A DNA stretch of 64,000 nucleotides from Candidatus Binatia bacterium. GTDB taxonomy: Bacteria > Desulfobacterota > Binatia > HRBIN30. Below are positions 6,919 through 24,972 of this stretch, piece by piece (position 1 is the first letter of the stretch; the number at the start of each line of letters is the position of its first letter). The stretch is taken from NCBI GenBank assembly GCA_038245295.1, contig JBBRSP010000032.1, forward strand, positions 1-64,000. The letters run 5' to 3'. Both the position numbers and the translations under genes were made by a program. The notes beneath the pieces were generated by a model that ran no database searches, had not been told where the DNA came from, and was given only the letters and a program-made list of their open reading frames with translations.

Positions 6919-8598
6919 CTAATGCGGCATCGTACGTGCCGGGTAGTCCTTCGGGTTGTGGTCGCTGCCATGGCAGGTGAGGGCGCAGCGGCCGCTTCCG
7001 GTGCCGAGCTCGGTGTACTCGAGTTGTCCGCTACTGGACGGCGTGACGACTTGTTTGCTGGTGAGATCGCGACTCATGAAGTTGATCAGGTGCGCGTTGC
7101 GCCGCGAGCCATGGGCGTCATGGCACACGGCGCAGCTGGCTCCCTGTTCGACGACGTGCTGCCGGTGCGGGAACCCGTCGGGGCGGTTCAACAGCGTGTT
7201 GCGATCGTGGCAGCCGTAGCACAGCGCATACAGTTGGTACGACTCGGGACCGCTCGTCGCGTCGAAGTGATACTCGGCAGCAAGAATCGGCCGGTAGTTC
7301 GAGCCGTGCGGACCGCGCGGCGCCGCACTGCCGAAGGGCGCCGCGGCATCGTTGTTGTGGCAGGCGATGCAGAGCGTCCGGCTTGCGGCACTGAGTGATG
7401 GTAGCAGCCCCTGGATCGTCGAGTTGCGTCCGACATCGGCGACCGGATGAAACGACGGATTGCGCGGATCGATCTGCAGCCGAACGTTGCTTACCTGGTC
7501 GACACGGTAGACGATCGGGTCGCGGTCCTCGGTGACACCGTGGCACTTGAGGCACACTTCGTACTCGAACGTAGCTTCCCGCAGGAAAGTACCGCCGATA
7601 CTGATTCCCGAGACGCCAGTCAGCGGGCCCGGCAGTTGGCCGGCCGGCGCCGTACTGCGCGCCTGGTGGGGGTTGTGGCAATCGACGCACTCCACGTGCG
7701 GTGGCATGAAATTGGGGTTCTCGATTGGATCGTGGACATCGGTGAAACGATCGACGCGGTGGGCACTGAGCTTGTACGATTCGCGCCGCAAGTCTTTGGC
7801 GGCACTGCGCCCGTCGTGGCAGTCGAGGCAGACCGCTTCCTCGGTTGGCGCCGTCAGCAGCCGTTTGGGGTGCGGCGCCGCGTGTGAGCGATGGCAACTG
7901 AAGCAGCCGTTCTGTCCCACCGTAGCCTGGGCGGTTCCAGGCACGGCGCTCGCCTGCCCGGCACTCGCCGAGGATGTTGCGTGTGCCGACTCCTGCCAGT
8001 GCGGCAGCTTGTGACAGGTGACGCAGAGCCCGGAGTACGCCGGGTCGGTGACCAGAAACTTGGGATGGCGGTCGAGGTGCGCGTCGTGGCAGCTGGTGCA
8101 CTGCATCTGCCGGGTGTCGTCGAGGCGCACGTTGCCGGTCAGGCTCGACGGGCTGACGAGCTCGCGCCGTCGCGTCGCCAGTGACTGGTCGTAGACGAAG
8201 GAGACCGGATGGTCGTCGGACAGATCGGTGCCGAGCGTCGAGTCGGCGTCACCCTTGATTCCGCCCTTGGCGATCACGCCGTCGTGACACGATAGGCACA
8301 AACGTGAGCTGCCGGTCGGTTGCTGAACCTGCGCTTGCGTCGTGCTGCTCTCGTAGAGCTTGTAGATGACCGGTGCCAATTCCTGATTCCACAAGCCGCG
8401 CTGGGCGGCGGCGCTGTGGGGCGTGTGACAGAAGAAGCAGAGGTCGTCCCGACCAGACATCGGGACCGAGCGACCTGCGGCGGCGACTCCGCCGCGACGC
8501 GGACTGAGGTTGTGTGGTGTTTCGCGCAAGCCCGCCGAAGCGGTCAACGGGAGAACCGACACGACGATGACGACAAGCCGCCGGGCGACGCGTTTCAC
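6919..8598 (-). CDS. Multiheme cytochrome c (11 CxxCH + 1 Cx3CH); OmcE-like N-terminal tetraheme domain plus an 8-heme domain
   Basis: Signal peptide; CFFCH, CLSCH, CTSCH, CVTCH, CFSCH, CLDCH, CVDCH, CLKCH, CIACH, CYGCH, CAVCH, CALTCH. Confidence 0.92.
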   Translation of the reverse strand: MKRVARRLVVIVVSVLPLTASAGLRETPHNLSPRRGGVAAAGRSVPMSGRDDLCFFCHTPHSAAAQRGLWNQELAPVIYKLYESSTTQAQVQQPTGSSRLCLSCHDGVIAKGGIKGDADSTLGTDLSDDHPVSFVYDQSLATRRRELVSPSSLTGNVRLDDTRQMQCTSCHDAHLDRHPKFLVTDPAYSGLCVTCHKLPHWQESAHATSSASAGQASAVPGTAQATVGQNGCFSCHRSHAAPHPKRLLTAPTEEAVCLDCHDGRSAAKDLRRESYKLSAHRVDRFTDVHDPIENPNFMPPHVECVDCHNPHQARSTAPAGQLPGPLTGVSGISIGGTFLREATFEYEVCLKCHGVTEDRDPIVYRVDQVSNVRLQIDPRNPSFHPVADVGRNSTIQGLLPSLSAASRTLCIACHNNDAAAPFGSAAPRGPHGSNYRPILAAEYHFDATSGPESYQLYALCYGCHDRNTLLNRPDGFPHRQHVVEQGASCAVCHDAHGSRRNAHLINFMSRDLTSKQVVTPSSSGQLEYTELGTGSGRCALTCHGSDHNPKDYPARTMPH

Positions 8599-9635
8599 GA
8601 TGCACCCCCAAGCGAGCGAAATATCTGGACGCGTTGATTGTAGGTGTCGACGACGTAGATGCGGTCGCCATCGACGGCCAGGCCCGACGGGAGCCAGAAC
8701 TGACCGGGGTCGTGACCGCGGCCGCCGAATACCATGAGGTAGCGGCCGTCCCCGTCGAACAGCTGGACGGCATCGAAGAGAGCGTCGACAAGGTAGACGT
8801 GTCCGGCCGCATCCACGCCGATGCCCTTGGGCCGGGCGAGTTCACCGGAGCCATCACCCTGCTGACCGAAGACCCCGAGGCAGCGGCCATCGGGGTCGAA
8901 GCGCTGGACGCGAAAGTTGAGCCCGTCGGTGACATAGAGAGTGCCGCCGGCATCGACGGCCATCCAGGTCGGAAAATTGAATTCCCCCGGAGCCGCGCCG
9001 CGTTCGCCAAAACGCAACTGCAGCGCGCCCTGCGGATCGAAGACCAGGACCTGATGCTTGCCGCTGTCACTCACGTACAACCGCGAACGCGTGGCGTCGG
9101 CGGCGAGACCCGCCGGGCGCGCCCCTTTCTCCAGATCCCAGCCGCCGACGCACTCACCGTCCGCGTCGAAACTGTCGATGCGGCCGCGCGCCGCGTCGGC
9201 AACGAAGAGGCGCTGCCCGAGAAACGCCACGGCGACCGGCTCAGCGAATTTGCTCGCATCGCAGCTGGTAAGCGAGTGGGCTTTTTGCGCCGTCAGATCA
9301 TAGAGCTGCACACGCGCCGCACCCGGATCCGCCACCGCGATGCGTCGCGCGTCTACGGCGACTCCGGTTGGACGCACGATCTCAGGATCGTCGGCACCAC
9401 CAACAAGGGTGGCGAGCCGCGACCACAGGGACGGTTTGATGCCGAGATCGGCCGCGCCACCGAACGCGGAGACCCACTCGACGCGCGCCTGGTCGGGCGG
9501 AGAAGGCCACACGAGCCGCACCGCCTCGACGCCCGGGCGGCCGGCGTCCCCCCAGTGACAGGATGCCACTAGGCTGGCGAGCAAGGGCACGAGGATCAGG
9601 AGGCGCTGCCGCCAGAGTCGACGTTCGGTACCCAT
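8595..9635 (-). CDS. NHL-repeat six-bladed beta-propeller lipoprotein
   Basis: Lipobox LVASC; WPSPPDQARV; repeated PxGxAVD / FNFPT / RPKGIGVD blades. Confidence 0.88.
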   Translation of the reverse strand: MGTERRLWRQRLLILVPLLASLVASCHWGDAGRPGVEAVRLVWPSPPDQARVEWVSAFGGAADLGIKPSLWSRLATLVGGADDPEIVRPTGVAVDARRIAVADPGAARVQLYDLTAQKAHSLTSCDASKFAEPVAVAFLGQRLFVADAARGRIDSFDADGECVGGWDLEKGARPAGLAADATRSRLYVSDSGKHQVLVFDPQGALQLRFGERGAAPGEFNFPTWMAVDAGGTLYVTDGLNFRVQRFDPDGRCLGVFGQQGDGSGELARPKGIGVDAAGHVYLVDALFDAVQLFDGDGRYLMVFGGRGHDPGQFWLPSGLAVDGDRIYVVDTYNQRVQIFRSLGGAS

Positions 9636-9643
9636 ACGAGTTC

Positions 9644-11692
9644 TCAGAAGAACCGCCGTACCATGCGTAGTTCGGCGCGCATATCGTTTAGCCGCCCGCG
9701 ATAGTCGGTCCAGGTGAAGCTCGGCGCAACCTCGAAGTTGCGATACGTCCAGTGCAGCCGCACGCCGCAGTCGGCGATCTCGTCGCTGGCGACCGACGAA
9801 TCGTCGAAGGCGCGGTAGCCGGCGAAAGAGGATACCGATACGCCGAGCGGCGTGAACCAATCGACCGAGGCGCGTGCCAGATACGACCGGGAGTGGCGCT
9901 GTTGCCCCGGGTAGTCGACGAAGTACTCGTCACCACTCAGCTGAGCGCTGACGTCCTGCACCGGCTGGTACACCAGCAATTGCCCAAAGCGCAGGGCATT
10001 GGAGTCGACGATCGTCGATCGCACGAGCTCGTAGGCGGCGCTCGACTGCACGCGCACCGTGCTCCACTGCTGGCGCAATTCCAATTTGAAGCGATCGAGA
10101 TTCTGGTCGATCAGAAAGTTCGAACTCGAGGAACCGGAAAGACGCGTTTGGTCGCTGAGGATGTGCTCGTACGATGTCGCGCCCCACGGGAACTCGACGC
10201 CGGTCCTGACATCGGCCGAGGTGGTCGAGAAGTGAATGCTCGGATCGAGGTTGCTCGTGTAGCTGACCTCGAGTGGGTCGCCGGGTCGGATCACCGGACT
10301 CGTGGGCAGAATGATGATGCGCGTCAGGCTGCCTTCCTGACTGAGCACGTAGTCGACGTTCAGCGTCGTCGGTAGGCGCGAGCCGCCGCGCACGTCGACC
10401 ATGACGATGGTGTCGTTCTGCACAAACGGATTGTTCAGCGTGAATCCGGCGCCCACACCAAACACCGCCGGTGCGGTGTGCGGCTCGTCGACAACGTCGA
10501 GCTGCGACGAGGTGAAGTTGTTCTGGTCGATCTGATAGCCGCCGGAGCAGGCGGCGAAGAATTGCGCCCCCCAGGGGATCGAGCGCCGGTAATCCAAACC
10601 AGTCTGGCCGCCGTAAACCATTCGGTCTCCGGTCTGGAAGTCTTGACGCATGGCGCGAACGTTCGCCGTACTGATCAACGTGCGGTAGAGGCGGTGCAGC
10701 AGTCCGGCCGTCGCCACGTTGGTTGTGGTGACACCGCTGGTCGAGTCGCTCTGCGAGAAGCTGTAGCGGTAGTCGGTGTTGAAATCGGCGCTGTGGTCGA
10801 GGCGCATGGCCTCGTCGAGCGAGATGAAGCTTCCGGGCGACGTGCCGGTGCGTTTGAAGTAATAGAAGGCGGAATCGAGCCTGCGGTTGAGGGTGGGCCC
10901 GAAATCGAAGCTGTCCAGCGCGCGCACCGTGTGACGGTCGAAGATGTCGGTCGGATTGAGCGGGTCATCGACGTTGTTGAACTCGTAGCGCAGATCGAGG
11001 TCCGACGTTTCCCACCCCTTGTGTCCCTGGTAGCGCACCACGTTGCGCGTCTCGTCGCGTCGAAACGGGCTGCCGAAGACCGCAGAGTCCTCTTTGACCA
11101 GCTCCTGGTGCACGTCAACCAGGGAGCTGAAATTGAGCAGTCCATACTCCTTCAGGAGGCTATTCTCGCGCAGCTCGAAAACGCCGCCGTGGGTTGCGAA
11201 CGTACTGTCGGACCGACCACCGAATCCCTGCGACAAGATGCTCTGATTGCGGTTGGCGAAAAAGTTCAGGAGGTACGGACGATCGGCGAAGAGGATTCCG
11301 TCGATCGCGTAGTCGTAGAGATCACCGTTGCCATAACGCAGTGGCTCGCTGGTGACGTTGATCGCTTCCTCTTGCGACAGCCCGAAGGAGCCGCCGAAAT
11401 TGAAGGTCAGGACGCGCGGATCAAGCAAGTACGCTCCAACGTTGCGCAAGCCAATCTTCTCCTGGAAGAAAATCGTCTCGTAGATGTTGTCCGAGCGTTT
11501 GTCGTCCTGTTTTTGCCAGTTGGTGAGGAAAGAGGCCTCGCCCTGCCAACGACCGAGCGACCACGCGGCCTGGGCTCGCGCCGTGTGGGTCAGAGCCACC
11601 AGCGCGAGGCCGACCAGCGCCACGGTGCACAACCCGCTCGTCCAGCTTACCGTGACGGGGAAGCCGCTGGTCCGTTGGACCGCTGAGATCAC
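9644..11692 (-). CDS. Outer-membrane beta-barrel protein (porin-cytochrome type)
   Basis: Signal peptide, amphipathic aromatic-rich beta strands, C-terminal ELRMVRRFF; GTGA-coupled to the upstream cytochrome. Confidence 0.8.
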   Translation of the reverse strand: MISAVQRTSGFPVTVSWTSGLCTVALVGLALVALTHTARAQAAWSLGRWQGEASFLTNWQKQDDKRSDNIYETIFFQEKIGLRNVGAYLLDPRVLTFNFGGSFGLSQEEAINVTSEPLRYGNGDLYDYAIDGILFADRPYLLNFFANRNQSILSQGFGGRSDSTFATHGGVFELRENSLLKEYGLLNFSSLVDVHQELVKEDSAVFGSPFRRDETRNVVRYQGHKGWETSDLDLRYEFNNVDDPLNPTDIFDRHTVRALDSFDFGPTLNRRLDSAFYYFKRTGTSPGSFISLDEAMRLDHSADFNTDYRYSFSQSDSTSGVTTTNVATAGLLHRLYRTLISTANVRAMRQDFQTGDRMVYGGQTGLDYRRSIPWGAQFFAACSGGYQIDQNNFTSSQLDVVDEPHTAPAVFGVGAGFTLNNPFVQNDTIVMVDVRGGSRLPTTLNVDYVLSQEGSLTRIIILPTSPVIRPGDPLEVSYTSNLDPSIHFSTTSADVRTGVEFPWGATSYEHILSDQTRLSGSSSSNFLIDQNLDRFKLELRQQWSTVRVQSSAAYELVRSTIVDSNALRFGQLLVYQPVQDVSAQLSGDEYFVDYPGQQRHSRSYLARASVDWFTPLGVSVSSFAGYRAFDDSSVASDEIADCGVRLHWTYRNFEVAPSFTWTDYRGRLNDMRAELRMVRRFF

Positions 11693-12939
11693 GGAGCATC
11701 CTTGATCCCGCTGTGACAGCGCTCGCACTGGCCGATCAGCTCGGTTGCCACGTCACCATGACAGGTCGCGCAATACTTGCCGCCGGCGAGATCAGGCATG
11801 CCGAGTCTGCTGGCGCTGGTAGCCGCATCATAGAGGTTGGTGTGACAGTTGGCGCACTCGAGATAGCGGTGTGTCTTGTGAGAAAAGCTGGTGGCGCCTC
11901 CGGATGCGGCGATCGGGCCGACCGGCACGTCAAGGTCGAGTGTGCTCTCGTGGTGCCGCGCTTGCTCGAAGCTGGGGTGGCACGGCCGGCAGGTGGTGGT
12001 GATGCCAAAGGCGACCGATCCGTGGCACGAGCCGCAGTAGCGTCGCGAGTGCAGGTCGATCGCTTTAACTCCTTCCAGCTTGCTGGCGGTGGGGAACAAT
12101 CGTGGATGGCAGTTTTGACAGGACAGCCATTTGGTGTGGCTGGCGTGTGCAAAGATGGCTTTGAACGTAGGCTGCCCCGAGGACTCCATCACGACGTCGA
12201 GATCGAGCTGTGGCTGTGGCTCGGCGTTTGCCATGCGTCCCGGCCGCGGCGAAATCAGATTGTCGTTCAGGGCGCGGTTCCAATCGACGCGCCCGGTCGG
12301 ATCGCGCGGAATGTTTTGCAGGTGGCACAGGGTGCAACCGCTCTTGGTGTCGAACGCCACCGGTCCGTGGCAAGTCGCGCAGTAGCGGTTGGTGTGCACG
12401 TCCGGCGCCGGCAGCACGTCGCCGCTTTTCATCTCAAAGATGCTGTCATGGCAGTTCGCGCAGCTCAGCCATTGCCCGTGCTTCGCATGCGAGAAGGTCA
12501 CCTTGAACGCCGGATTGGCGGGGGGAACGAGATCGATATCGAGCTCGATGACGTCCTGCTGCTTGGCGTCCGGCTCGCGCCCAGGCCGTGGGGCAATCAC
12601 CTTCTCTTCTGCGGCCCGCGTCCAATCGGGATTTCCGACCGCGTCCTTGGGAAGCTTACGCACCACGTCGTCGAAGGTGGCGAACGCGTTGGGCCCACGT
12701 GCCTCGGCACCAAGCTGCACGTCATCCTGCGGTGGTACCGTCGGGGTTGGCGTGGCGGACGGCGGATGGCGCGGGCTGCGCGCCACCTGAGGCGGGGGCG
12801 TCTCGTCTGACGGAATATCCGCGAACAAGAACGCGAGAACGCGCTGACGGTCCTCCGCGCCGCATCCGACAACCCCTGCCACGAAGGCCAGAGCGAGCAG
12901 CAGCAGAACGACCGGCCTTGCCTGGGCCACCGACGTCAC
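11689..12939 (-). CDS. Nonaheme lipoprotein cytochrome (three c7-type triheme domains)
   Basis: Lipobox VVGC; 9 CxxCH in three FxHxxH...CxNCH...YCxxCHG...CxxCH repeats; GTG start overlapping the upstream stop. Confidence 0.9.
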   Translation of the reverse strand: MTSVAQARPVVLLLLALAFVAGVVGCGAEDRQRVLAFLFADIPSDETPPPQVARSPRHPPSATPTPTVPPQDDVQLGAEARGPNAFATFDDVVRKLPKDAVGNPDWTRAAEEKVIAPRPGREPDAKQQDVIELDIDLVPPANPAFKVTFSHAKHGQWLSCANCHDSIFEMKSGDVLPAPDVHTNRYCATCHGPVAFDTKSGCTLCHLQNIPRDPTGRVDWNRALNDNLISPRPGRMANAEPQPQLDLDVVMESSGQPTFKAIFAHASHTKWLSCQNCHPRLFPTASKLEGVKAIDLHSRRYCGSCHGSVAFGITTTCRPCHPSFEQARHHESTLDLDVPVGPIAASGGATSFSHKTHRYLECANCHTNLYDAATSASRLGMPDLAGGKYCATCHGDVATELIGQCERCHSGIKDAP

Positions 12940-13265
12940 GGCCCGATGTGGCAACGCTGGCACATGTCGGTGCCAAACGCGGCCTTGCCATTGTGGCAGG
13001 CTCCGCACGATTGCCCCTTCGCCATCGCCGCCATGGTCGGCGCTTCGCCTCGCTTCATGGCGAAGAGATCGTCGTGGCAGGCGTAACATTTGTATTGGAT
13101 GCGATGCACCCAGTGCGGGAAGTAGGCGATGGCGATCTCACCGGCGGGGCGTTGGCGCGGATAGACGATGTCACCCAGCGTCCCGGCGCGCGCCGGCAAA
13201 GCGCCAGTGACCAGAAGCCCCAGCATCAGGCCGAGGAACATGCGTGCGAGATGGTGGCGGGCCAC
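12936..13265 (-). CDS. Periplasmic triheme c7-type cytochrome
   Basis: Signal peptide; FPHWVH, CYACH, CGACHNG, CQRCH. Confidence 0.92.
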   Translation of the reverse strand: MARHHLARMFLGLMLGLLVTGALPARAGTLGDIVYPRQRPAGEIAIAYFPHWVHRIQYKCYACHDDLFAMKRGEAPTMAAMAKGQSCGACHNGKAAFGTDMCQRCHIGP

Positions 13266-13290
13266 GTCCTAAACCTCCGGGGAGAACCTG

Positions 13291-13338: not shown

Positions 13339-13346
13339 AGTCACGA

Positions 13347-13997
13347 CTAGATGTCGTGGCAGGTGCTGCAGATCGCGCTGCCGCCGTTGTCGATCTTCAA
13401 GAACGGCGGATACGCGTTGTCATGTGGATTGTGGCACGAGCCACACTGGACGAAGCCTGCCGAGTCGTAGTTGACTGCGTTGCCGGCCGGCACCGTCTTG
13501 AAACCGGTGAAGCCGGTAACGTTCGCCGGCTTGGTGACGCCCAACGGATGGTTCGTCCCCATGGCAGCCGGGTTCAGGAAGGCGGCGGACCCGGACGTCA
13601 ACTTCCCTGCCGTGACGTTGGGGCCACTGACGGTACCACCTGTGTCGCGGATCAAGTCACCCAGGGCAATCGTGCCGTCATGACAGCTCATGCAGGCGCG
13701 CGATCCCGCCAGGGCGGTGCTGGTCATGGAGGTCGGCAGAGTCGTCCCCCGGACCGTCGTGGTGGGTGCCCAGGTGAGGTTCTGGATCGTCATATTGTGA
13801 TTCCACAGTGGCCGGGCCGCTGCCGGCTGGCTGTTGTGAGTCACGTGGCAGAACACGCATGTTTGCGTCTGCGTATTCGACTTGATTGCCCCGCCGCCCG
13901 TCGAGCTCAAGTCGTGCTTCGTGCCGGCAATCGGCAAGGCAAGTGCAAGCCCCGGCGTCAGCAGGGCAAGAGCGAGAAAGACGAAGCGCTTTCTCAT
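13347..13997 (-). CDS. omcE: OmcE-like tetraheme cytochrome c (candidate nanowire subunit)
   Basis: 216 aa with signal peptide; IAGTKHDLSS, CVFCHVTHN, PLWNH, CMSCHDG, NHP, CGSCHNPHDN, PFL, terminal CSTCH follow the Geobacter OmcE motif order as recalled; strong GAGGAGG RBS. Confidence 0.8.
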   Translation of the reverse strand: MRKRFVFLALALLTPGLALALPIAGTKHDLSSTGGGAIKSNTQTQTCVFCHVTHNSQPAAARPLWNHNMTIQNLTWAPTTTVRGTTLPTSMTSTALAGSRACMSCHDGTIALGDLIRDTGGTVSGPNVTAGKLTSGSAAFLNPAAMGTNHPLGVTKPANVTGFTGFKTVPAGNAVNYDSAGFVQCGSCHNPHDNAYPPFLKIDNGGSAICSTCHDI

Positions 13998-14087: not shown

Positions 14088-15176
14088 TCAACGTCCTCCT
14101 TTCTCGCCTCGCGGAATGGCCGCACCGGACGACAACTGGACGCTGTCTTCGACGGCGGTGCCGATCAGCTCGTAAACGCCGACCCGTTTTCCGAACGTGT
14201 CGGAAACGTAGATGCGGTTGCGGTTGTCGATGGCGATGGCGGTAGGATTCGTCAGCAGCCCCGGATAGGAGCCGACGCCGCCGAAGATCATCAGCAGCTG
14301 ACCGTGCTGATTGAACATCTGCACGTTGCTCCAACGCGAGTCGACGACGTAGATGTTGCCGAACGTGTCGATGGCGACGCCCTTCGGTCGCGCGAAGTTG
14401 CCGAGCTGGTCGCCCGACTCACCAAACTTCCAGAGAAACTTGCCGCTCGAGTCGAAAACTTGAATGCGATTGTTGACCGAGTCGACCACGTAGAGCCGGC
14501 CGTCAGCGTCGAGGTTGGCGAATGTCGGGAAGTTGAATTCGCCGTCGGCGCCGCCGCGCTTGCCGATTTCCTGCACCAACTGGCCGCCGAGATCGAAGAC
14601 GCGGATGCAATGCCCTTGCGGCGTATCATTGCGGCCAGTGTCGACGACGTAAAGGCGCTGCCGCGTGTTGTCGACGGCGATGCCGGTCGGATGAATCAAG
14701 AGGTCCTTGCCGATGTTGCGCAGGAAGCCGCCGCCTCTGTCATAGACACGAACGCTCTGCGTCCCGGTGTCGGTGACGTACACGTTCTCCGCATCGTCGA
14801 GGGCGACGCCCACCGGCATCGCCAGGGCATACCGCTCGTCGTCGCCGATGCTGCGTAACGTGCCAGTCTTGGAATCGAAGACGAACACGGCGTTCCACAC
14901 GTGGTCGGCGACGTAGACGCGCTCGCCGTCCGCCGACACGGCCAGACCCATCGGCTGGTAGAGGGCGCGCGTCTTGTCGCTGCCGGCCAGCAGTTCGCGC
15001 ACAGACGGACCGCCGACATCATCGCGCGACTGGAGCGTGCCGATGAGCTTGATGCGCGGCGCGTCGGGCGGATCCGGCCAGAATACTTCTGGAAGTTGGG
15101 ATTGCTGCGTCGCGCAACCGGTGCAGTTTAAGGCGACGCTCATGACCAGCATGACGGAGACGGTGAGTGTTTTCAC
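14088..15176 (-). CDS. NHL-repeat beta-propeller lipoprotein
   Basis: CTGC lipobox; FWPDPPDAPRI; six NHL blades; paralog of 8595-9635. Confidence 0.88.
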   Translation of the reverse strand: MKTLTVSVMLVMSVALNCTGCATQQSQLPEVFWPDPPDAPRIKLIGTLQSRDDVGGPSVRELLAGSDKTRALYQPMGLAVSADGERVYVADHVWNAVFVFDSKTGTLRSIGDDERYALAMPVGVALDDAENVYVTDTGTQSVRVYDRGGGFLRNIGKDLLIHPTGIAVDNTRQRLYVVDTGRNDTPQGHCIRVFDLGGQLVQEIGKRGGADGEFNFPTFANLDADGRLYVVDSVNNRIQVFDSSGKFLWKFGESGDQLGNFARPKGVAIDTFGNIYVVDSRWSNVQMFNQHGQLLMIFGGVGSYPGLLTNPTAIAIDNRNRIYVSDTFGKRVGVYELIGTAVEDSVQLSSGAAIPRGEKGGR

Positions 15177-15189
15177 AGCGTCTCGCAAA

Positions 15190-15303
15190 TGCAATTCCCG
15201 TGCTCTGCAGCCATGCATCGTGACACGATATAGAACGATCCCATTTTAGTGTTCTCTCTGCAAATGCTTGCATGGTCTGATGGCTGTTCCGCAGAGCTTT
15301 GCA
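15190..15303 (-). promoter_or_regulatory. Internal promoter: sigma54-like element with paired palindromic activator sites
   Basis: Minus strand GAGCACGGGAATTGCA (15205-15190; one mismatch in the -24 GG); TGCAAATGCTTGCA at 15259 and CGCAGAGCTTTGCA at 15290. Confidence 0.55.
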
Positions 15304-18006: not shown

Positions 18007-20981
18007 GGCGCCACCCACCCGACGAAGCCATGCAAATCCACGGTGGAGCTCGGGGCCAGGTCAATCGCCTCCCCGAGCAAGGCGCCGTGAATTGCCGCGG
18101 CGCGCCCGACATGAATACGTCGGCTTGCCACGATCGAGCCGGTGACGGCGGACTCCCGCTTCAGTGCAGCCGACTGGTCCACGACGAACAGCACACGCTC
18201 GGGCGATAGGCCCTCGGTGTCGATGCGTGCTGCCGAACCGAGGATGAGACGGCCGTGTACGCGCACGATCACTGTATCGGTGCCGCCATCACCGGCCAAA
18301 GTCAGTCGACTTCCGGGGCCGAGGATGAGGTTGTTCAGGTCGACGACGACTTGTCCGCCACCAAGACTACCGGCAGCCGGGAGGCGGCGGCTAGCGGCGC
18401 GCCCCAGCGTTAGCGTGCCAAGAATGAGATCCGGTCGCGGTGCGAGGCCGGCGAGCTGCGCCAGCCGACGTGTCGCCAATGTCCGCGCCGCGACACACTC
18501 GGAGAGCGCCACGCTGTTGCCGGTTGTATCAACGCGTCCACTGACGCTGGTGGCCTCGATCCCGCTGACACTACCGCCGCCGGTGCTGGCATCGCCGCTG
18601 GTCGAACTGCCATGGCGAAAGGCGACGGCACGGCCGCTGTCGGCCCACGCTGTCAGGTTGCCGTCGACGCGCGCGAAGAGACCGAGCTTCAACTCCTCGA
18701 CACAGATCTCGCCGAGGACGATCGTATCGCTGCCGAGTTTGGTCGTGCGACGCACGTGTGTAGGCAGGGGCCAGCGCAGCAGGGCGTAGTTCGCGGTGAC
18801 GAAGCGGCCGCGACAGGAACCGGCTCCGTTACAGGTATCACCCACGGTCGCGGCATCCAGGTCATCGCAAGGCTTTGTGGAGAATGGGTGTCCACAAGTG
18901 CCCGCCGAGTCGCAAATGTCGTCCGTGCAGTCGTTGCCATCGTTGCAGTCCCGTAAGGCGCCCCGGCACACACCGCCGGCGCAGTTGTCACCGAGCGTGC
19001 AAGCATTGCCGTCGTCGCACGCAGCCGAGTTGTTGCCGCGGGCGCAGCCGCTAGCCGGATTGCAGCTGTCATCGGTGCAGTCGTTGGCGTCATTGCAATC
19101 ACGCGCCGCGCCGCGGCAGGTGCCGTCGCCGCAGGTGTCACCCACGGTGCAGGCATTGCCGTCGTCGCACGCAGCCGAGTTGTTGCCGTGGGCGCAGCCG
19201 CTCGTCGGATTGCAGCCGTCATCGGTGCAGTCGTTGCTGTCATTGCAGTCGCGCGGCGCGCCGCCACAAATGCCGCTGCCGCAGGTGTCACCCAGGGTGC
19301 AAGCGCTGCCGTCGTCGCAGGGCGAGATGTTGTCGGCGTGGAGGCAGCCACTGGCGGGGGCGCAGCTGTCGTCGGTGCAGGTATTGTTGTCGTTGCAGTC
19401 GAGCGCCGCGCCGGTGCAGACTCCGCCGCCGCAGGTATCACCCGAGGTGCAAGCGTTGGCATCGTCACAGGCTGCCGTGTTTGGGCTGAAGACACAGCCG
19501 TTCGGCGCATCACACGAATCGTCGGTGCAGACATTGCCGTCGTCGCAATGGAGCGCCCGTCCGACACAGACTCCGGCGCTGCAAGTATCTTCGATAGTGC
19601 AGGCGTCGCCATCTTCGCAGCCACCGCCGTCCGCCTTGGCCCGAACCGTGCAGCCGCTGGGGACAAGGCATACCGCCTCGCTACACTGCGGGTCGGCGTC
19701 GCCGAGAGGGCAGAGGGTGCCCGGGCCACAGATCGTCACCTGCAGCGCCGTCGAGCCCTCGAAGTGCATGGCGCCGATGGAACCGGTGAGCTGGACGGTC
19801 GCGGCACCTTGCGCCGGCAGTGTGGTGAGCAACTGGGCTGTATCAAATTCGACGCGCAGGTCGGCCACACCGTTGTTGTCATGATCGCCGCTGGTGACGG
19901 TGGCGGAAGCGTGGATGCCATTGGCGGTGATAGTCGATGGGTCGATCTGGTCCGGTGAGTATCCCGGCACTTCGATGTAGGCCGCGACTACCGGCGGCGG
20001 CGTCGCACGTTCGATGGGATCCGGAGCGATCTGGGCCACAGCGGGTGCGACGCTTTCGGGATCGGTGAAGGTGCCGAGACTGAAGACTTCGAGGCGAGCG
20101 TTATTGGCGGCGGCGATGAAGAGGCGATTAGAGGAATCAATCGCCAGACTCACGGGGATCCTCAACTGGCCCGGGGCATCGCCGAAGTCGCCGAGATAAC
20201 TTACGAAGTCGCCGTTACGATCGAGGACCTCGACGCGGCCTTCGACGGAGTCCGCCACGTAGACGCGCCCCTGGGCGTCGAGAGCGATTCCTTGCGGCAT
20301 GTTGAACTTGCCGGCGCTGTTTCCCTGGGCGCCGAAGCAGGACAGGAATGTGCCGTCGGCGGCGAAGGTCTCGACGCGATAGTTGAGTTGGTCGACAACG
20401 AGGACCTGCCGTGTCGCCGCATCTACAGCGACGGCGACGGGGACGTTGAACTGGCCATCGCCGCTGCCTTGTCCTCCGAACGCGAACAGGGGAGCACCAC
20501 CGGCCGCGTAGACTTTGACGCTGTGGGCGGCGCTGTCGACGATGTACAGATTACCGGTAACGGCCTCGATCGCGATGTCGTTCGGCAGCCCGAGCTCGCC
20601 GGCGCCGCGGCCGCATTGAAAGAGCTGCTGCCAGGCGGCGTCGAACGCCGTGACACTGCCCGTGGCGGCATCGCCGACGTAGATTGTGTCATTGCCGGCG
20701 ACGGCAACACTTGTTGGGCGAGCAACGGGCTTGGTCCGCGACAAGACCCGGCCGTTTGCCGCCCGCACGACGATCTCGTTGAGCGCCGAATCGACGATGT
20801 AAAGGTTGCCCGACGGAGTCGCGGCGACACGACTCGGCACGCCAAAAGGGGCTCGATAGGCGCGCAGGTATGACGCCGGTGGTGCCGGCAATGCTGAGGT
20901 GCCGCCACCTCCACACAACCCATGCGCCGTCGAGGAGAGTAGCAGCGCGGGAAGAACGAGAAGTCGTATTGGGAGTGACAT
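18003..20981 (-). CDS. Secreted modular protein: NHL propeller, Cys-rich CDDGNACT repeats, C-terminal beta-helix-like domain
   Basis: Signal peptide; NHL blades; 50-aa Cys repeats; C-terminal RVLFVV/GSIVA/GALLG beta-solenoid-like pattern. Confidence 0.8.
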   Translation of the reverse strand: MSLPIRLLVLPALLLSSTAHGLCGGGGTSALPAPPASYLRAYRAPFGVPSRVAATPSGNLYIVDSALNEIVVRAANGRVLSRTKPVARPTSVAVAGNDTIYVGDAATGSVTAFDAAWQQLFQCGRGAGELGLPNDIAIEAVTGNLYIVDSAAHSVKVYAAGGAPLFAFGGQGSGDGQFNVPVAVAVDAATRQVLVVDQLNYRVETFAADGTFLSCFGAQGNSAGKFNMPQGIALDAQGRVYVADSVEGRVEVLDRNGDFVSYLGDFGDAPGQLRIPVSLAIDSSNRLFIAAANNARLEVFSLGTFTDPESVAPAVAQIAPDPIERATPPPVVAAYIEVPGYSPDQIDPSTITANGIHASATVTSGDHDNNGVADLRVEFDTAQLLTTLPAQGAATVQLTGSIGAMHFEGSTALQVTICGPGTLCPLGDADPQCSEAVCLVPSGCTVRAKADGGGCEDGDACTIEDTCSAGVCVGRALHCDDGNVCTDDSCDAPNGCVFSPNTAACDDANACTSGDTCGGGVCTGAALDCNDNNTCTDDSCAPASGCLHADNISPCDDGSACTLGDTCGSGICGGAPRDCNDSNDCTDDGCNPTSGCAHGNNSAACDDGNACTVGDTCGDGTCRGAARDCNDANDCTDDSCNPASGCARGNNSAACDDGNACTLGDNCAGGVCRGALRDCNDGNDCTDDICDSAGTCGHPFSTKPCDDLDAATVGDTCNGAGSCRGRFVTANYALLRWPLPTHVRRTTKLGSDTIVLGEICVEELKLGLFARVDGNLTAWADSGRAVAFRHGSSTSGDASTGGGSVSGIEATSVSGRVDTTGNSVALSECVAARTLATRRLAQLAGLAPRPDLILGTLTLGRAASRRLPAAGSLGGGQVVVDLNNLILGPGSRLTLAGDGGTDTVIVRVHGRLILGSAARIDTEGLSPERVLFVVDQSAALKRESAVTGSIVASRRIHVGRAAAIHGALLGEAIDLAPSSTVDLHGFVGWVAP
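18860..19620 (-). repeat. Intragenic 150-bp tandem repeat encoding 50-aa Cys-rich units
   Basis: GCATTGCCGTCGTCGCACGCAGCCGAGTTGTTGCCG at 19003 and 19153; degenerate copies at 19303 and 19453. Confidence 0.85.
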
Positions 20982-20995
20982 GGTGCGGCTGTCCG

Positions 20996-22378
20996 TCAGT
21001 GGGCGACCTGTTTGGAGCGGAAGGTGGCGGTGTCATGGCACGTTGCGCATTGTGTTCCCTGCTTGGCGCAGCTGGCCGTGGTGTTGCTGTGGCACGAGAC
21101 ACATTGGCGACCGACCTCGCTGTAGGAGCGCGAGCGGTGGCACTGGCTACAGATCAGGCGCGTGTGAGCGCCGGTGAGAGGGAAAGGGCTGGCGTCGTGA
21201 TCGAACAGCACCTGGCGGCTCCAGCCCCGTTCATCGTGACAGCTCTCACATCGGGTTCCTTGTTGATGATTGTGCACGTCGTCATCGCGGTGGCACGAGT
21301 AACAGGTGGTCGACTGCCGCTCGGCGCGTGGCTCGGCGCGGTGGCAATTCGTGCACGGTGTCTCCTTGTGGCGGCCACGCAGCGCGAAATGTGTGTGGCG
21401 ATCGTGGTCGAAGGTCGGTCGGCGCCAGTCGATGGGTGTGTGACACGACTCGCAGGTGTTGCCGAAATGCCCCTGATGCCTGTCGTCGCGGGCGTGGCAG
21501 CTGACGCAGGTGGCAGAGGTGTGGTCCGCCGCCGTGCCGGGTTTGTGGCAGCTGACACAGGCGGTTGCCGCGTGCCGACCGATCAAGGGGAAGGATGTCT
21601 TGCGCGCGTGGTCGAAGATGGCGCCGGTCCAACCGCGCGTCGTGTGGCACGCCAGGCAGTTGCTGCCGAAGGTTCCCTGGTGGCGGTCGTTCTTAGAATG
21701 ACAGGCAACGCATTCTGTGGGCGTCGGCTTGAAGCGCCGACTCGTATGGCAGCTCTCGCAGCGCAGCGTCTGATGTCGATCCCGCAAGGGGAAGCGAGTT
21801 GCGCTGTGGTCGAACTGTGCCGGCTTCCAGCCGCTCTCGTCGTGGCAACTCGTGCAGGCCATACCGAGTGTGCCGTCGTGCGGATCCTTTGTCTGGTTGT
21901 GGCAGTCGCTACACGCCGAGGGGGCGTCGCGAAAGCGGGTGTCGGCGGGATGGCAACCTTCACAGTCGAGCTTGGTGTGACCTCCGACGAGCGGCATGTC
22001 GGTGAGGCGATGATCAAAGGTGCGGCGTTCGAGATGGATCAGGGTCGCGTCGCGGCCCTTGTGTTCAGCGTGGCAGGATTTGCATTGCTGCGCCTTGACT
22101 GTCGGCTCGTGCCCGTGGAAGCCGCGGCTGGAATCGAGATCGCCGGCGACGTCCGTATGGCACGCCAGGCAGAGACGGTCCTGCGACGCCTTTTCGAAAG
22201 GCTCATGGCATTTGCCGCACGCCTTCTCCGTCGCCGCATGCTTCTCTGTGACTTGTCCAGGCATAACTAGTGATTCAACCCATGTGGCTCGCGCCGGCCC
22301 AGGGACCCAGATCATCAACACAGCGGCCATCACGATCACGCACGCTCTGGATCGGGTCGCCCACAGTCCCCACCGCAT
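20996..22378 (-). CDS. 18-heme periplasmic cytochrome c built from triheme repeats
   Basis: 18 CxxCH; repeated FDHxxTxFPLxGxH...CxxCH...CxxCH...H.G..G..CxxCH units; N-terminal signal. Confidence 0.92.
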   Translation of the reverse strand: MRWGLWATRSRACVIVMAAVLMIWVPGPARATWVESLVMPGQVTEKHAATEKACGKCHEPFEKASQDRLCLACHTDVAGDLDSSRGFHGHEPTVKAQQCKSCHAEHKGRDATLIHLERRTFDHRLTDMPLVGGHTKLDCEGCHPADTRFRDAPSACSDCHNQTKDPHDGTLGMACTSCHDESGWKPAQFDHSATRFPLRDRHQTLRCESCHTSRRFKPTPTECVACHSKNDRHQGTFGSNCLACHTTRGWTGAIFDHARKTSFPLIGRHAATACVSCHKPGTAADHTSATCVSCHARDDRHQGHFGNTCESCHTPIDWRRPTFDHDRHTHFALRGRHKETPCTNCHRAEPRAERQSTTCYSCHRDDDVHNHQQGTRCESCHDERGWSRQVLFDHDASPFPLTGAHTRLICSQCHRSRSYSEVGRQCVSCHSNTTASCAKQGTQCATCHDTATFRSKQVAH

Positions 22379-22381
22379 GGC

Positions 22382-23332
22382 TCAATACATGTTCACCGCG
22401 ATGACGTGCAGGACTCCTGCAAGCACCAACATAATGAACAGCGGAATGTGCAGCGCGTGCCAGAGCGAGAACAGTCGCTCGAAGGCGCCGAACTGCAGAT
22501 CTTTGACAAGGGCGTTCATGTAGTCGCGGATGACCTCGGCGGTTTCCTCCTCGTTCAGGCGAGTACCGCAGCCTTCGGGTTGAGTGCCCCGGGTGGCCGC
22601 CAGCAGATCACGATGCAGGTCGCGTACAATGCGACGCTGCACCCAGGCGGCATAAAACGGCAGGACCAGGATCCGAAATAGACGACTGACGAGACCCGTG
22701 CGTTGGGCTCCGGCACGACGTGCGAACCGTGCCAGGCGCTGTGCGGCGTCGGATGTCGGGGGTAGCCGTTCCTCCAAGGTGTGGGCGGACGAGTCGAGCA
22801 TCGCATCGAGGTCTTTGATGGTGGCGCGTGCGCCGTAGAGGCCGTGGCTGATGCGTGTGTAGATGTAGCGGCCGACGACGCCGCTGGCCGACACGATCAG
22901 CATCGAAAACAATGCGACATTACTGTTGGGCGCCCCCAGGTGGAAGCCACAGTGGAATAGGATCAGCACGGGGCCGATGACCCCGAGCAGCATGTGCGTG
23001 CGGAACCAGTGGCTCAGGGAACCCCAGGAGCGCATGAAGCGTAGCGACTTGCGGGCCGGGTACAGGGCCAGAATAAGCATGGCTGAGGCGCCGGCGATGC
23101 CAAGTCCGTAACCGAGCCCATGTTTTGGTGTGATCCCGAGATGATCCCGGGAACTCCAGCCGAGAGTCACGGTGATCGCGACGACGCCGGTAAACAGGAT
23201 GGCGGAAAGGCTCGGGTTGTGTGCCTTGCGGTGGACCCGCCGCGGTCGCGTCGCCGATTGTGAATCGTCATCACGGGCACGCCCGGTAAGATGGATCGAG
23301 AAGGGGCGAGCAACACTCATCGTCGACTCCAT
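22382..23332 (-). CDS. His-rich integral membrane protein (cytochrome b / ferric-reductase-TM-like)
   Basis: About 5 hydrophobic segments; WFRTHMLLGVIGPVLILFH and LWHALHIPLF...VLHV intramembrane His pairs. Confidence 0.7.
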   Translation of the reverse strand: MESTMSVARPFSIHLTGRARDDDSQSATRPRRVHRKAHNPSLSAILFTGVVAITVTLGWSSRDHLGITPKHGLGYGLGIAGASAMLILALYPARKSLRFMRSWGSLSHWFRTHMLLGVIGPVLILFHCGFHLGAPNSNVALFSMLIVSASGVVGRYIYTRISHGLYGARATIKDLDAMLDSSAHTLEERLPPTSDAAQRLARFARRAGAQRTGLVSRLFRILVLPFYAAWVQRRIVRDLHRDLLAATRGTQPEGCGTRLNEEETAEVIRDYMNALVKDLQFGAFERLFSLWHALHIPLFIMLVLAGVLHVIAVNMY

Positions 23333-23399
23333 TCCCCGTCGCCGGTTCCCTGCATTGGTTTGGACTTCGTCAGCATCATCAAATCCGTGAGTGCGTCAG

Positions 23400-23415
23400 T
23401 GCAAACCTCATGCCC
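23400..23415 (-). promoter_or_regulatory. Candidate sigma54 (-24/-12) promoter for the cytochrome operon
   Basis: Minus strand GGGCATGAGGTTTGCA, exact GG-N10-GC spacing. Confidence 0.65.
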
Positions 23416-23472
23416 TGATTTGAGGGGGCTGTGCGAAGCACGGGAACCTTGCCGAAGTGGCAATTCGGCAAA

Positions 23473-23518
23473 CGCAAGAGTTTGCGGAGCGGCAAGGTTG
23501 TCACTGCAAACGCTTGCA
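23473..23518. promoter_or_regulatory. Paired palindromic upstream activator sites
   Basis: CGCAAGAGTTTGCG (23473) and TGCAAACGCTTGCA (23505), 32 bp apart; same motif pair at 15259/15290. Confidence 0.6.
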
Positions 23519-23570
23519 GTGCAGTGGGTACGTTGCGCAGGCGAGGTCTACATCGTTCTTGTCGGCTGAG

Positions 23571-23586
23571 CGGCATTGCACTTGCA
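23571..23586 (+). promoter_or_regulatory. Candidate sigma54 promoter for the flavoprotein gene
   Basis: CGGCATTGCACTTGCA, exact GG-N10-GC spacing. Confidence 0.6.
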
Positions 23587-23628
23587 TCGTCGGCGGTATG
23601 TGGATGGCCATGGCAGGATGAAGTTGGG

Positions 23629-24972
23629 GTGAGCAGTCAGTTCGAAGCAGCGGTGCGTGCTTTGTGGAGCGAAGAGTTCATTCGCTTCCCAATTTACGCG
23701 ATGACGATGAGCCTGATCTGGGCTGCGTATTGGACCCGTCGCCTGAGGCAGCAGCGGCGCACGGTGCGCATGCTGGAGACGGCGGTCGCGGCTGGTCTGA
23801 GTGATCCGCCATCCCTGCACCCCGTCATCAATGAGGCGCACTGCATCGGTTGCCGGTCGTGCGTTACCGCTTGTCCGGAGGGTGATGTGCTCGGCGTGAT
23901 CGATGGTAAGGCACGTCTGGTCAATCCAAGTCACTGTATCGGTCACGGCGCCTGCAAGCGCGCTTGCCCGATGAACGCCATCGACCTTGTCTTCGGCACG
24001 GAGAGGCGTGGCGTCGACATCCCGTTTGTCAGCAGCGAGTTCGAGACCAATGTTCCCGGGGTGTTCATCGCCGGCGAGCTCGGCGGAATGGGGCTGATCC
24101 GCAATGCCGCCGAGCAGGGCCAGCAGGCAATCACCGCGATTGCCGAGCGTCGTGACAAAAGCGGTGACGCCGAGCTCGACGTGTTGATCGTCGGAGCGGG
24201 ACCGGCCGGAATCGCCGCGTCATTGGCCGCCGCCGAGAAGCGGTTGCGTTATGTGACGATCGAGCAGGAAGTGCGCGGCGGAACCGTGGCGCACTATCCG
24301 CGCGGCAAGATCGTCATGACGGAGCCGGTGAATTTGCCACTGGTCGGCAAGACCCGCCTGCGTGAGACAACCAAGGAAGCCTTGCTCGCCTTCTGGGAAG
24401 CGATCGAGAAGGAACACGGGCTGAGCATTCATTACGCCGAGCGCCTCGAATCGATCATCGCGGAGCGCGACGGGTTTCTTGTGCGTACCTCGAGTGCCGT
24501 CTACCGTGCGCGCGCCGTGTTGCTGGCGATCGGCCGCCGTGGTTCACCGCGCAAGCTTGATGTTCCAGGTGAGGAGGTTGCGAAGGTCGTCTATCGCCTG
24601 ATCGATGCGGCGCAGTATGACGGCAAACACGTACTGGTGGTCGGTGGTGGCGACAGCGCGATCGAGGCGGCTGTCAGCCTGTCCGAGCGACCGGGGACAC
24701 AGGTAACCCTGTCCTACCGCGGCGCGGCGTTCTCGCGCACCCGCGAGAAAAACCGCCAACTGCTTGCGGCGGCCGCCGCCAAACATCGGCTCAGCGTCGT
24801 CCTCGAATCGTCGGTTCGAGAAATTCTGGCCGCCGATGTGATTCTGGAACACCACGGTGCACAGCGCCTTATCCCCAACGACGCGGTGATCGTCTGTGCC
24901 GGCGGCATCCTGCCGACGCAGCTGCTCAAAGACATTGGGGTGCGCGTCGAAACCAAATATGGAACCGCATGA
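23629..24972 (+). CDS. 4Fe-4S dicluster / FAD-dependent NAD(P)H oxidoreductase (thioredoxin-reductase-like fold), N-terminal membrane anchor
   Basis: CIGCRSCVTACP and CIGHGACKRACP; GAGPAG FAD site; GGGDSA and SYR NADPH site. Start uncertain (GTG 23629 or ATG 23701). Confidence 0.85.
   Translation: MSSQFEAAVRALWSEEFIRFPIYAMTMSLIWAAYWTRRLRQQRRTVRMLETAVAAGLSDPPSLHPVINEAHCIGCRSCVTACPEGDVLGVIDGKARLVNPSHCIGHGACKRACPMNAIDLVFGTERRGVDIPFVSSEFETNVPGVFIAGELGGMGLIRNAAEQGQQAITAIAERRDKSGDAELDVLIVGAGPAGIAASLAAAEKRLRYVTIEQEVRGGTVAHYPRGKIVMTEPVNLPLVGKTRLRETTKEALLAFWEAIEKEHGLSIHYAERLESIIAERDGFLVRTSSAVYRARAVLLAIGRRGSPRKLDVPGEEVAKVVYRLIDAAQYDGKHVLVVGGGDSAIEAAVSLSERPGTQVTLSYRGAAFSRTREKNRQLLAAAAAKHRLSVVLESSVREILAADVILEHHGAQRLIPNDAVIVCAGGILPTQLLKDIGVRVETKYGTA

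Follow-up and report, generated by a model that had tools for sequence, protein, structure and literature searches.

The gene cluster and its layout

We analysed a 64,000-nucleotide stretch of DNA from a Candidatus Binatia bacterium (assembly GCA_038245295.1, contig JBBRSP010000032.1, positions 1 to 64,000), which is called the window below; the host assembly is called G000. Region 6919-24972 of the window contains twelve genes, eleven of them running in the same direction on the minus strand and one, divergent from them, on the plus strand. They encode six multihaem cytochromes, three NHL propellers, a beta-barrel of about 30 strands, a dihaem-type membrane protein and an FeS flavoprotein (Table 1). 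An earlier note on this DNA, made from the letters only, had described the region as a candidate complete electron conduit from cytoplasm to cell surface, built around an OmcE-type nanowire cytochrome. Its inventory was borne out: the eleven minus-strand genes and the divergent one lie at or near the positions it gave, and its haem-motif counts (18, 14, 4, 3, 9 and 12) agree with ours. All three propellers match PF01436 (E 1e-28, 9e-29 and 6e-21 in round figures), and the OmcE-type cytochrome matches two solved OmcE structures, 7TFS and 9YUQ, over its full length. The note had made its reading depend on the modelling of the 9644-11692 product, which came out as a beta-barrel in the AF2 model and in the Foldseek comparison. 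The synteny comparison across relatives that it had proposed found 10 to 12 of the cluster genes kept in three other genomes. Because of this synteny and the strong family and PDB matches, chance is not an issue.

Read from the flavoprotein end, the gene order in G000 is flavoprotein (plus strand), inner-membrane protein (IMP), 18-haem cytochrome (c18), NHL_A, 14-haem cytochrome (c14), NHL_B, OmcE homologue, triheme cytochrome (c3), 9-haem cytochrome (c9), barrel, NHL_C and 12-haem cytochrome (c12). The OmcE gene most likely starts at 13997, giving a protein of 216 residues, with a GGAGG ribosome-binding site ahead of its ATG. The N-terminus of NHL_C indicated 9635 as its most likely start. 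The c9 gene most likely starts at 12939, where it overlaps the stop codon of the triheme gene, and its product carries the lipobox VVGC. Comparison of orthologues placed the beginning of the conserved part of the flavoprotein near residue 71-88 of its longest open reading frame (ORF). At six of the ten junctions the genes overlap by 4 nt or are separated by at most 14 nt, and wider gaps of about 80-130 nt lie on either side of the OmcE and NHL_B genes. A promoter and terminator scan of 6500-25200 found such sites to be rarer than in shuffled sequence, and therefore no operon boundaries were derived from it.

Table 1. Genes of the cluster in window coordinates
Product	Coordinates	Strand	Features
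FeS flavoprotein	23431..24972	+	2x[4Fe-4S] ferredoxin and pyridine-nucleotide-disulphide-oxidoreductase domains
IMP, PCC3-type inner-membrane protein	22382..23332	-	five predicted transmembrane helices; 15 His
c18, periplasmic cytochrome with signal peptide	20996..22378	-	18 CxxCH
NHL_A, 992-aa secreted protein	18003..20981	-	NHL, Cys-rich repeats, ice-binding-like region
c14 cytochrome	15346..18006 (ORF 15346-18018)	-	13 CxxCH and 1 CxxxCH
NHL_B, probable lipoprotein (UetH/I-like)	14088..15218	-	start uncertain: 15218, 15176 or 15152
OmcE-family tetrahaem cytochrome (UetA-like)	13347..13997 (ORF 13347-14039)	-	4 CxxCH; 216 aa; signal peptide
c3, triheme c7-type periplasmic cytochrome (UetD/E/G-like)	12936..13265	-	3 haem motifs
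c9, 9-haem lipoprotein	11689..12939 (ORF 11689-13089)	-	9 CxxCH; three c7-type triheme domains
Large outer-membrane beta-barrel (UetC-like)	9644..11692	-	AF2 model; ends in Phe
NHL_C propeller lipoprotein	8595..9635 (ORF 8595-9860)	-	lipobox LVASC
c12 cytochrome (UetJ-like "undecahaem")	6919..8598	-	11 CxxCH and 1 CxxxCH

The outer half and the OmcE-like head of the 12-haem cytochrome

The tetrahaem protein matched the G. sulfurreducens OmcE filament (PDB 7TFS, E 3.7e-21, residues 26-228 against 15-230) and D. soudanensis OmcE (PDB 9YUQ, E 1e-20, full length). In an alignment of 23 sequences its four CxxCH motifs and H28, H54, H150 and H192 were invariant, which gives eight histidines for four haems. 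These alignments make the product of 13347-13997 a true OmcE homologue from end to end. It is a candidate secreted filament subunit, which probably polymerises on the cell surface.

Related loci were collected by scanning genome contigs with an OmcE alignment. A relative was encoded in 601 of the 624 pattern-matched stretches, and the best 80 were kept, representing 78 loci. The c3 protein scored 77.6 bits with the nanowire_3heme model TIGR04257 (cut-off 40) and matched PF14522 (9e-16); c9 scored 139.9 bits with TIGR04257 over three stretches, again above the cut-off. NHL_B matched the Pfam NHL family (PF01436, 9.2e-29) and the six-bladed propeller DUF5128 (7.6e-17), and its orthologues adjoin OmcE in loci L001, L002, L087 and L085. 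NHL_C matched PF01436 as well (1e-28), and an NHL gene lies about 1 kb ahead of the c12-like match in most of the 78 related loci.

The barrel gene has no Pfam or NCBIfam match. Its alignment-based AF2 model is all-beta with about 30 strands (mean pLDDT 86.5) and contains a small inserted domain near residues 406-480. Foldseek matched the model to TonB-dependent receptors, FimD/PapC ushers, LptD and MtrB; the best TM-score among the matches listed was 0.44/0.45, to MtrB (6r2q_B), which stood among many large barrels. The DmsE/MtrA family model scored far below its cut-off for every cytochrome of the cluster. A homologous barrel was found in the Geomonas paludis cluster (locus L067), which codes for a 15-motif cytochrome, an OmcE-family tetrahaem protein, an NHL protein, a 5-haem lipoprotein, a 678-aa barrel, another NHL protein and a 12-haem cytochrome. 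The hhalign probability was 98.7% between the two barrels and 99.8% between the two tetrahaem proteins, and c12 aligned with this locus at 35% identity over 589 residues (tblastn). The barrel of G000 is thus homologous to those of omcE clusters. The outer half of the cluster (6919-15218) is an omcE/uet-type module.

Two published systems resemble this half. According to Petersen et al. (mBio 2026, PMC13712944), a minimal omcE cluster has OmcE itself, a large barrel, and two each of multihaem cytochromes and propeller lipoproteins; this content is complete at the G000 locus. As in the omcE cluster of Desulfuromonadia, a tetrahaem OmcE with all ligands is accompanied by two propeller lipoproteins, a large barrel and multihaem cytochromes. 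As in the smallest omcE clusters described in that paper, no glycosylation genes follow the G000 cluster. The differences are in host and composition. The host belongs to Binatia, whereas the relevant passages of PMC13712944 name five other phyla; the gene order around OmcE is different, and the 5-haem lipoprotein is replaced by c7-type proteins with 3 and 9 haems. G000 also adds c14, the 992-aa NHL/Cys-rich protein, c18, the IMP and the flavoprotein. The second system, uetA-J of Tenderiales and Gallionella, is described with a tetrahaem UetA, a barrel UetC, triheme c7 proteins UetD/E/G, NHL proteins UetH/I and an undecahaem UetJ (10.1101/2022.05.06.490989; Hoover et al. 2023, PMC10734462). 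Compared by the gene content described in the preprint, G000 shares the tetrahaem protein, the barrel, the triheme c7 protein, two NHL proteins and a cytochrome with exactly 11 CxxCH. In contrast, no UetB peptidyl-prolyl isomerase or UetF cupredoxin was found among the 12 ORFs (Pfam, NCBIfam), and no ccsAB or bat genes adjoin the G000 locus. Uet is modelled, in the passages concerned, as an uptake system of autotrophs, whereas G000 has no detectable RuBisCO. From the accounts given in these sources, uetA-J and the omcE cluster are evidently the same kind of cluster.

A second OmcE-family cluster with Geomonas-like order was observed on another contig of G000 (C19, about 5032-17827, within locus L088 = C19:5000-24999). 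It runs from a 1202-aa frame with 8 CxxCH through a tetrahaem protein, an NHL protein, a 5-haem lipoprotein, a barrel-sized ORF of about 700 aa, another NHL protein and a c12-like cytochrome to a 13-haem cytochrome. Its tetrahaem protein has 266 residues and matches the OmcE profile at 99.6% (hhalign), its c12-like cytochrome is 36% identical to c12, and neither an IMP nor a flavoprotein gene is nearby.

The 12-haem cytochrome also begins with an OmcE-like module. Residues 7-197 of c12 matched PDB 7TFS (E 6.6e-18), and the OmcE profile aligned with residues 17-198 (hhalign 99.7%, E 1.4e-25) with all eight haem-ligand positions included. The first 200 residues or so are a complete OmcE-like tetrahaem module, and eight more haems follow. 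In an alignment of 29 sequences all 12 haem motifs are kept, with 22 invariant and 4 nearly invariant histidines, two beyond the need of 12 bis-His haems. This protein is widespread. A c12-like ORF of about 520-735 aa was present in 64 of the 78 best loci (tblastn, at least 480 residues, E<=1e-30), which span Nitrospirota, Acidobacteriota, Verrucomicrobiota, Planctomycetota, Bacteroidota, Campylobacterales, Desulfobacterota, Myxococcota, Beta- and Gammaproteobacteria and others; for the majority of loci, what had matched OmcE was the N-terminus of such an ORF, with an NHL gene ahead.

Our literature searches found no published statement that the 12-haem (UetJ-like) cytochrome carries an OmcE-like head. 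According to the relevant passages of PMC13712944, omcE operons code for no OmcE-like anchor or tip candidate, unlike G000, where c12 opens with an OmcE-like module; the Tenderiales preprint suggests an interaction of UetA with UetJ as a possibility only (10.1101/2022.05.06.490989). With an OmcE fold and the full set of eight OmcE haem ligands, the module could give or receive the histidine that links subunits. Through this N-terminal module c12 may be the base of the OmcE filament. A complex prediction for OmcE residues 21-216 with the c12 module 23-210, both entered as alignments and run without controls, scored 0.18 against a mark of 0.32 and is evidence neither way.

From its second haem on, c14 is a paralogue of c12 (BLASTP, c12 97-505 against c14 425-850, E 5e-27), and its residues 355-511 matched the OmcE profile (hhalign 93%, E 3.5e-7). 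The N-terminus is unlike that of c12 and consists of two haems and a non-haem domain of about 300 residues. F5/8-type-C and choice-of-anchor-J matches of c14 were weak and under the cut-off. A split OmcE-like head of c14 was considered and dropped; the N-terminal 96 residues correspond to the final two haem motifs of OmcE (86.7%). NHL_A, whose orthologues (55-59% identical) adjoin c14 in three other Binatia genomes (G012, G098 and G076), combines an N-terminal NHL region (Pfam, 5.5e-21), Dicty_CTDC-like repeats with 53 cysteines (7.6e-10) and a C-terminal ice-binding-like, beta-solenoid region (Ice_binding, 2.5e-6, just under the cut-off). It is a possible scaffold or adhesin.

The inner half and its linkage to the outer half

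The conserved inner-membrane protein of the PCC3 and PCC4 clusters is described with SGxxG on transmembrane helix (TM) 4 and two W-x3-H-x13-H motifs (He, Barco, Emerson and Roden 2017, PMC5566968). The IMP of G000 is like it in its length of about 300 residues and its five helices, and it matches the published motifs exactly: W109-x3-H113-x13-H127 on TM3, S150-G-x-x-G154 on TM4 and W291-x3-H295-x13-H309 on TM5. In a 28-sequence alignment H113, H127, H292, H295, H309, S150, G151, G154 and W291 were invariant and W109 nearly so. It is presumably a dihaem protein whose two b haems are stacked across the membrane. The positive-inside rule would put H113 and H295 towards the cytoplasmic side and H127 and H309 towards the periplasmic side.

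The AF2 model of the IMP has a pLDDT of 82.9. No Pfam family and no ferric-reductase match was found for it (Pfam, E<=0.01). The family is large: limits of E<=1e-3 and E<=1e-30 gave 2475 and 479 cluster representatives. An atlas cluster bears the automatic name "ferric reductase like" (score 0.97). A ferric-reductase or other solved fold was unsupported by Foldseek and VIA-align; in the latter, the best match was an ABC-transporter TM domain (Z 11.3) and cytochrome b561 reached Z 7.8, both in the range of helical-bundle noise. Fused redox domains were also sought in ten long members of the family (449-687 aa) and the idea was rejected: four gave TPR-type or SPOR matches and six gave nothing. 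These long forms are probably gene-call artefacts or unrelated fusions.

The flavoprotein has one N-terminal TM helix, a 2x[4Fe-4S] ferredoxin domain and a TrxR/YpdA-type domain for binding FAD and NAD(P)H (Pfam Pyr_redox_3 1.7e-39, Fer4_10 1.4e-11; NCBIfam YpdA-like 6.5e-44, under the cut-off). The c18 cytochrome matches HmcA weakly (E 5e-5), with a score far under the cut-off. In the Hmc and Tmc complexes of sulphate reducers, a high-haem cytochrome c of the periplasm is combined with a cytochrome b in the membrane and an FeS protein on the cytoplasmic side. The likeness of the G000 genes to them is one of layout only, and on the cytoplasmic side G000 has an NAD(P)H-type flavoprotein instead of an HdrD-like protein.

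The three genes form a conserved unit. A metagenome search with the IMP family gave 80 loci, and the counts below are limited to loci with room on the contig. In 71 of 72 loci the IMP is followed downstream, after no more than 700 nt, by the start of a c18-like cytochrome (37-48% identity in full-length alignments). Of 45 loci, 33 have a flavoprotein in the 5 kb upstream of the IMP, and in 27 of those it is divergent and within 1 kb. Most of the loci go on to a second cytochrome with 13-39 haems, which is the canonical PCC3 layout. Within Binatia, the flavoprotein adjoins the IMP in G076 and in five of five further genomes, and the whole trio of flavoprotein, IMP and c18 was found in all five of the latter, within reach of the contigs.

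Judged from its motifs and gene order, the inner half of the cluster (20996-24972) is the front end of a PCC3 cluster, and only this half is PCC3-type. A periplasmic multihaem cytochrome lies directly downstream of the IMP as in PCC3, with 18 haems compared with a median of 21 (range about 18-27) in the data given by PMC5566968. In contrast to PCC3, the giant extracellular cytochrome (median 34 haems in the same source) is missing and there is no separate PCC3 porin gene; the omcE/uet module takes their place. The PCC3 paper proposes exchange with the quinone pool, and its relevant passages do not mention a flavoprotein partner (PMC5566968).

The metagenome loci L116, L119, L120, L143, L160, L185 and others are canonical PCC3 loci, with a 21-24-haem cytochrome after the IMP and then a second one with 33-39 CxxCH. 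In the Binatia genome G014 (locus L104, C3:4225000-4244999) the IMP is followed by 24- and 27-haem cytochromes, and the flavoprotein lies about 6 kb downstream on the opposite strand, a looser arrangement; G014 has no OmcE or c12 match at E<=1e-10.

The linkage of the two halves was followed across 201 genomes of the class. At E<=1e-10, 21 of them (G000 included) match the OmcE query, and a close free OmcE was found only in G000, G012, G076 and G098, at 68-72% identity to that of the window. G076, which belongs to the same order as G000 and to another family, has all 12 genes, with flavoprotein, IMP and c18 placed between c14 and NHL_B. The order in G012 and G098 is c18, NHL_A, c14, NHL_B, OmcE, c3, c9, barrel, NHL_C and c12. 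The fused halves were thus found in two of the four Binatia genomes that have an OmcE orthologue, and c18 lies inside the omcE cluster in all four. Neither IMP nor flavoprotein was found in the flanks of any of the 78 other omcE-type loci. Our results indicate that c18 was recruited into the omcE cluster in this clade of Binatia, and that the whole PCC3 front end accompanies it in two genomes.

Six other genomes of the class have strong IMP orthologues, and in five of them (all except G076) the trio and the c12-type genes are on different contigs. G000 has a single IMP gene. With no frame of more than 18 CxxCH in this genome, a PCC3-type giant extracellular cytochrome that the IMP-c18 pair could serve was not found. 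One metagenome contig of 1985 bases (L138) carries an OmcE-like tetrahaem gene (219-884, minus strand) divergent from a PCC3-type IMP gene (1197-1943, plus strand). It is the only one of the 80 IMP loci with an OmcE-like tetrahaem gene beside the IMP, in the usual place of the flavoprotein, and is a possible third case of OmcE-PCC3 linkage.

Direction of electron flow and host context

The host assembly is 6.63 Mb in 129 contigs and 96.6% complete. It contains cytochrome c maturation genes, six genes for haem-copper oxidase subunit I, and 33 stop-to-stop frames with at least three CxxCH, so it is rich in cytochromes; no gene for the RuBisCO large subunit was found in it. The rest of the window codes for a Rieske oxygenase, acyl-CoA dehydrogenases and similar catabolic enzymes. 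Binatia is a widespread lineage of soil and sediment, described in the relevant parts of PMC11264602 as aerobic methylotrophs or alkane degraders.

With moderate confidence, we consider the locus to be a hybrid trans-envelope electron-transfer operon that joins a PCC3 front end to an omcE/uet outer module, with outward flow most likely. From the homologies, folds, motifs and synteny described above we infer haem b binding, the coupling of the two halves, polymerisation and the direction of flow, which would combine as follows. In the membrane-anchored flavoprotein, electrons would pass from NAD(P)H to FAD and to the two [4Fe-4S] clusters, and from there to the two b haems of the five-helix IMP. 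The IMP would reduce the 18-haem periplasmic cytochrome, which would in turn pass electrons to the c7-type tri- and nonahaem relay of the periplasm. The relay would deliver them to the 12-haem cytochrome in the barrel; c12, the two NHL lipoproteins and the barrel of about 30 strands would together make up the passage through the outer membrane. From c12 the electrons would enter an OmcE polymer on the cell surface, grown from the OmcE-like head of c12. Through such export, a heterotroph that otherwise lives aerobically could rid itself of reducing equivalents during O2 shortage. Being NOX-like, the export would conserve no energy at that step, and it could serve as a redox valve or as a route to extracellular acceptors.

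A more specific version of this scheme is less probable and is offered only tentatively. Here c12 would be the missing base of the nanowire, its head nucleating the polymer at the mouth of the barrel and its eight further haems running through the barrel. Binatia would feed this base from NAD(P)H through the dihaem IMP, in a quinone-independent, NOX-like manner, and c14, which has the large non-haem domain, would be an alternative terminal subunit, serving as tip or adhesin.

Several observations weigh against the hybrid operon with outward flow. In G012 and G098 the omcE cluster holds c18 without an adjacent IMP or flavoprotein, and the inner module is therefore dispensable or replaceable. 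The flavoprotein was absent within 5 kb upstream of the IMP in 12 of the 45 metagenome loci. For the fold of the IMP, Foldseek against the PDB had no match at E<=0.001, and among the 48,161 chains compared by VIA-align there were generic helical matches and no specific relative; because a specific structural relative and a Pfam match are both lacking, it is the motifs that argue for haem b binding. PCC3, Uet and the G000 locus are all predictions made from genes. The published models of Uet (Tenderiales) and PCC3 (iron oxidisers), as far as their relevant passages go, describe uptake by aerobic iron or cathode oxidisers (PMC5566968, 10.1101/2022.05.06.490989, PMC10734462), and the G000 host is an aerobe too.

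This last point leads to the reading that the same proteins work in reverse, drawing electrons from Fe(II) minerals, reduced humics or partner cells and passing them through the periplasmic cytochromes to the oxidases. It has the precedent of the two published models, which assume aerobic lithotrophs, and the six haem-copper oxidase genes of the host would provide the sink. However, the lack of a detectable RuBisCO large subunit in a genome of this completeness and the heterotrophic catabolic genes of the window do not suit such a lifestyle. Uptake through the dihaem IMP to FeS, FAD and NAD(P)+ would by our reasoning run against both redox and membrane potential, and the flavoprotein becomes hard to explain unless the IMP is bypassed. 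We regard uptake as unlikely. Outward flow is most likely and considerably more probable than inward flow, since it would be downhill in redox terms and helped by the membrane potential, whereas inward flow to NAD(P)+ by this route would have both against it (an argument from reasoning only). The midpoint potential of D. soudanensis OmcE bundles, given as -145 mV in PMC13712944, fits an outward chain from NAD(P)H.

Whether a wire is formed at all is a separate matter. The OmcE homologue, c12 and c14 might act as monomeric cytochromes on the surface or inserted in the barrel, in a porin-cytochrome complex like MtrCAB. The barrel resembles MtrB as well as pilus ushers, c12-like genes with NHL genes (and a barrel where one is detectable) are far commoner than free OmcE genes, as the 64 of 78 loci indicate; what matches OmcE there is mostly the c12 N-terminus itself. 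This fits poorly with the free tetrahaem protein of G000, which keeps all eight histidines and aligns end to end with two solved filaments. Its gene is also a separate one, with its own strong ribosome-binding site and gaps of 81 and 90 nt to its neighbours, which would suit a highly expressed subunit gene. A wireless complex is accordingly rather improbable in our view, somewhat more so than uptake. Least of all do we expect the two halves to be mere neighbours, with the PCC3-type module serving another periplasmic process and not wired to the omcE/uet module. The five Binatia genomes with trio and c12/OmcE-type matches on different contigs are consistent with such independence, as are the omcE clusters of G012 and G098 without an adjacent IMP. 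But the adjacency recurs in two families with different gene order, and possibly in L138; c18 lies inside the omcE cluster in every Binatia genome with an OmcE orthologue; the IMP and c18 genes are separated by 3 nt, in a run of genes that goes on with short gaps; and no PCC3-type giant cytochrome was found in G000. Independence of the two halves is very improbable.

Compared with what is published, both parent types are known: the omcE/uet outer type and the PCC3 inner type are existing predictions. The earlier note, which named neither Uet nor PCC3, had overstated the novelty here. Several of its other expectations fared better. An OmcE-type locus with propellers and accessory cytochromes agrees with the cluster content given in PMC13712944; the His-rich membrane protein, 18-haem cytochrome and FeS flavoprotein it listed are real and form a conserved unit across genomes and metagenome loci; and its O2-capable degrader of a host fits the six haem-copper oxidases, the Rieske oxygenase and the acyl-CoA dehydrogenase genes, yet the genome is rich in cytochromes. 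What is new is the lineage Binatia, the fusion of two known cluster halves, and the OmcE-like head of a UetJ-type cytochrome. Literature searches combining Binatia or Binatota with multihaem or extracellular-electron topics found no description of such a cluster; PMC11264602 treats Methanoperedens cytochromes and Binatia methylotrophy, with no Binatia cytochrome cluster in its relevant passages.

The arrangement in G000 and G076 is a natural module swap, in which a PCC3 front end meets an omcE/uet back end. It argues that the IMP and its periplasmic cytochrome are a general adaptor from inner membrane to periplasm, and that a PCC3 front end can serve omcE/uet clusters, which themselves lack an inner-membrane component. 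The start of OmcE filaments and their attachment to the cell are treated as an open question in PMC13712944. The OmcE-like head of c12, found in 64 of the 78 best loci across many phyla, is a concrete candidate for the filament end. Nanowire-type genes are extended to Binatia, and heterotrophs short of O2 may fall back on extracellular electron transfer. If the flavoprotein does feed the chain, this would be quinone-independent electron export in a Gram-negative cell.

Downstream of c12, a DUF2889 protein (5846-6847, minus strand) is followed by a DUF11-repeat protein (4723-5757, minus strand), and both were left out of the cluster. The former had no tblastn match in the 78 related loci, and the latter was identified by Pfam scan only; the DUF11 family is common in cell-surface proteins. 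Among the three DNA runs listed, the stretch was present in two, both from one sediment study, and no RNA run was listed for it. Another multihaem group was observed on contig C5 of G000 (about 214686-221448, minus strand), with frames of 12, 4, 7 and 10 CxxCH. Elsewhere in the window, a 1617-aa ORF at 31317-36170 (minus strand) has a bacterial Ig-like (Big_2) match and is possibly a large surface protein, and a gene at 29095-30030 (plus strand), beside a GFO/IDH/MocA oxidoreductase, belongs to the MpaB/rubber-oxygenase (Lcp) catalytic-domain family (E 3e-59).

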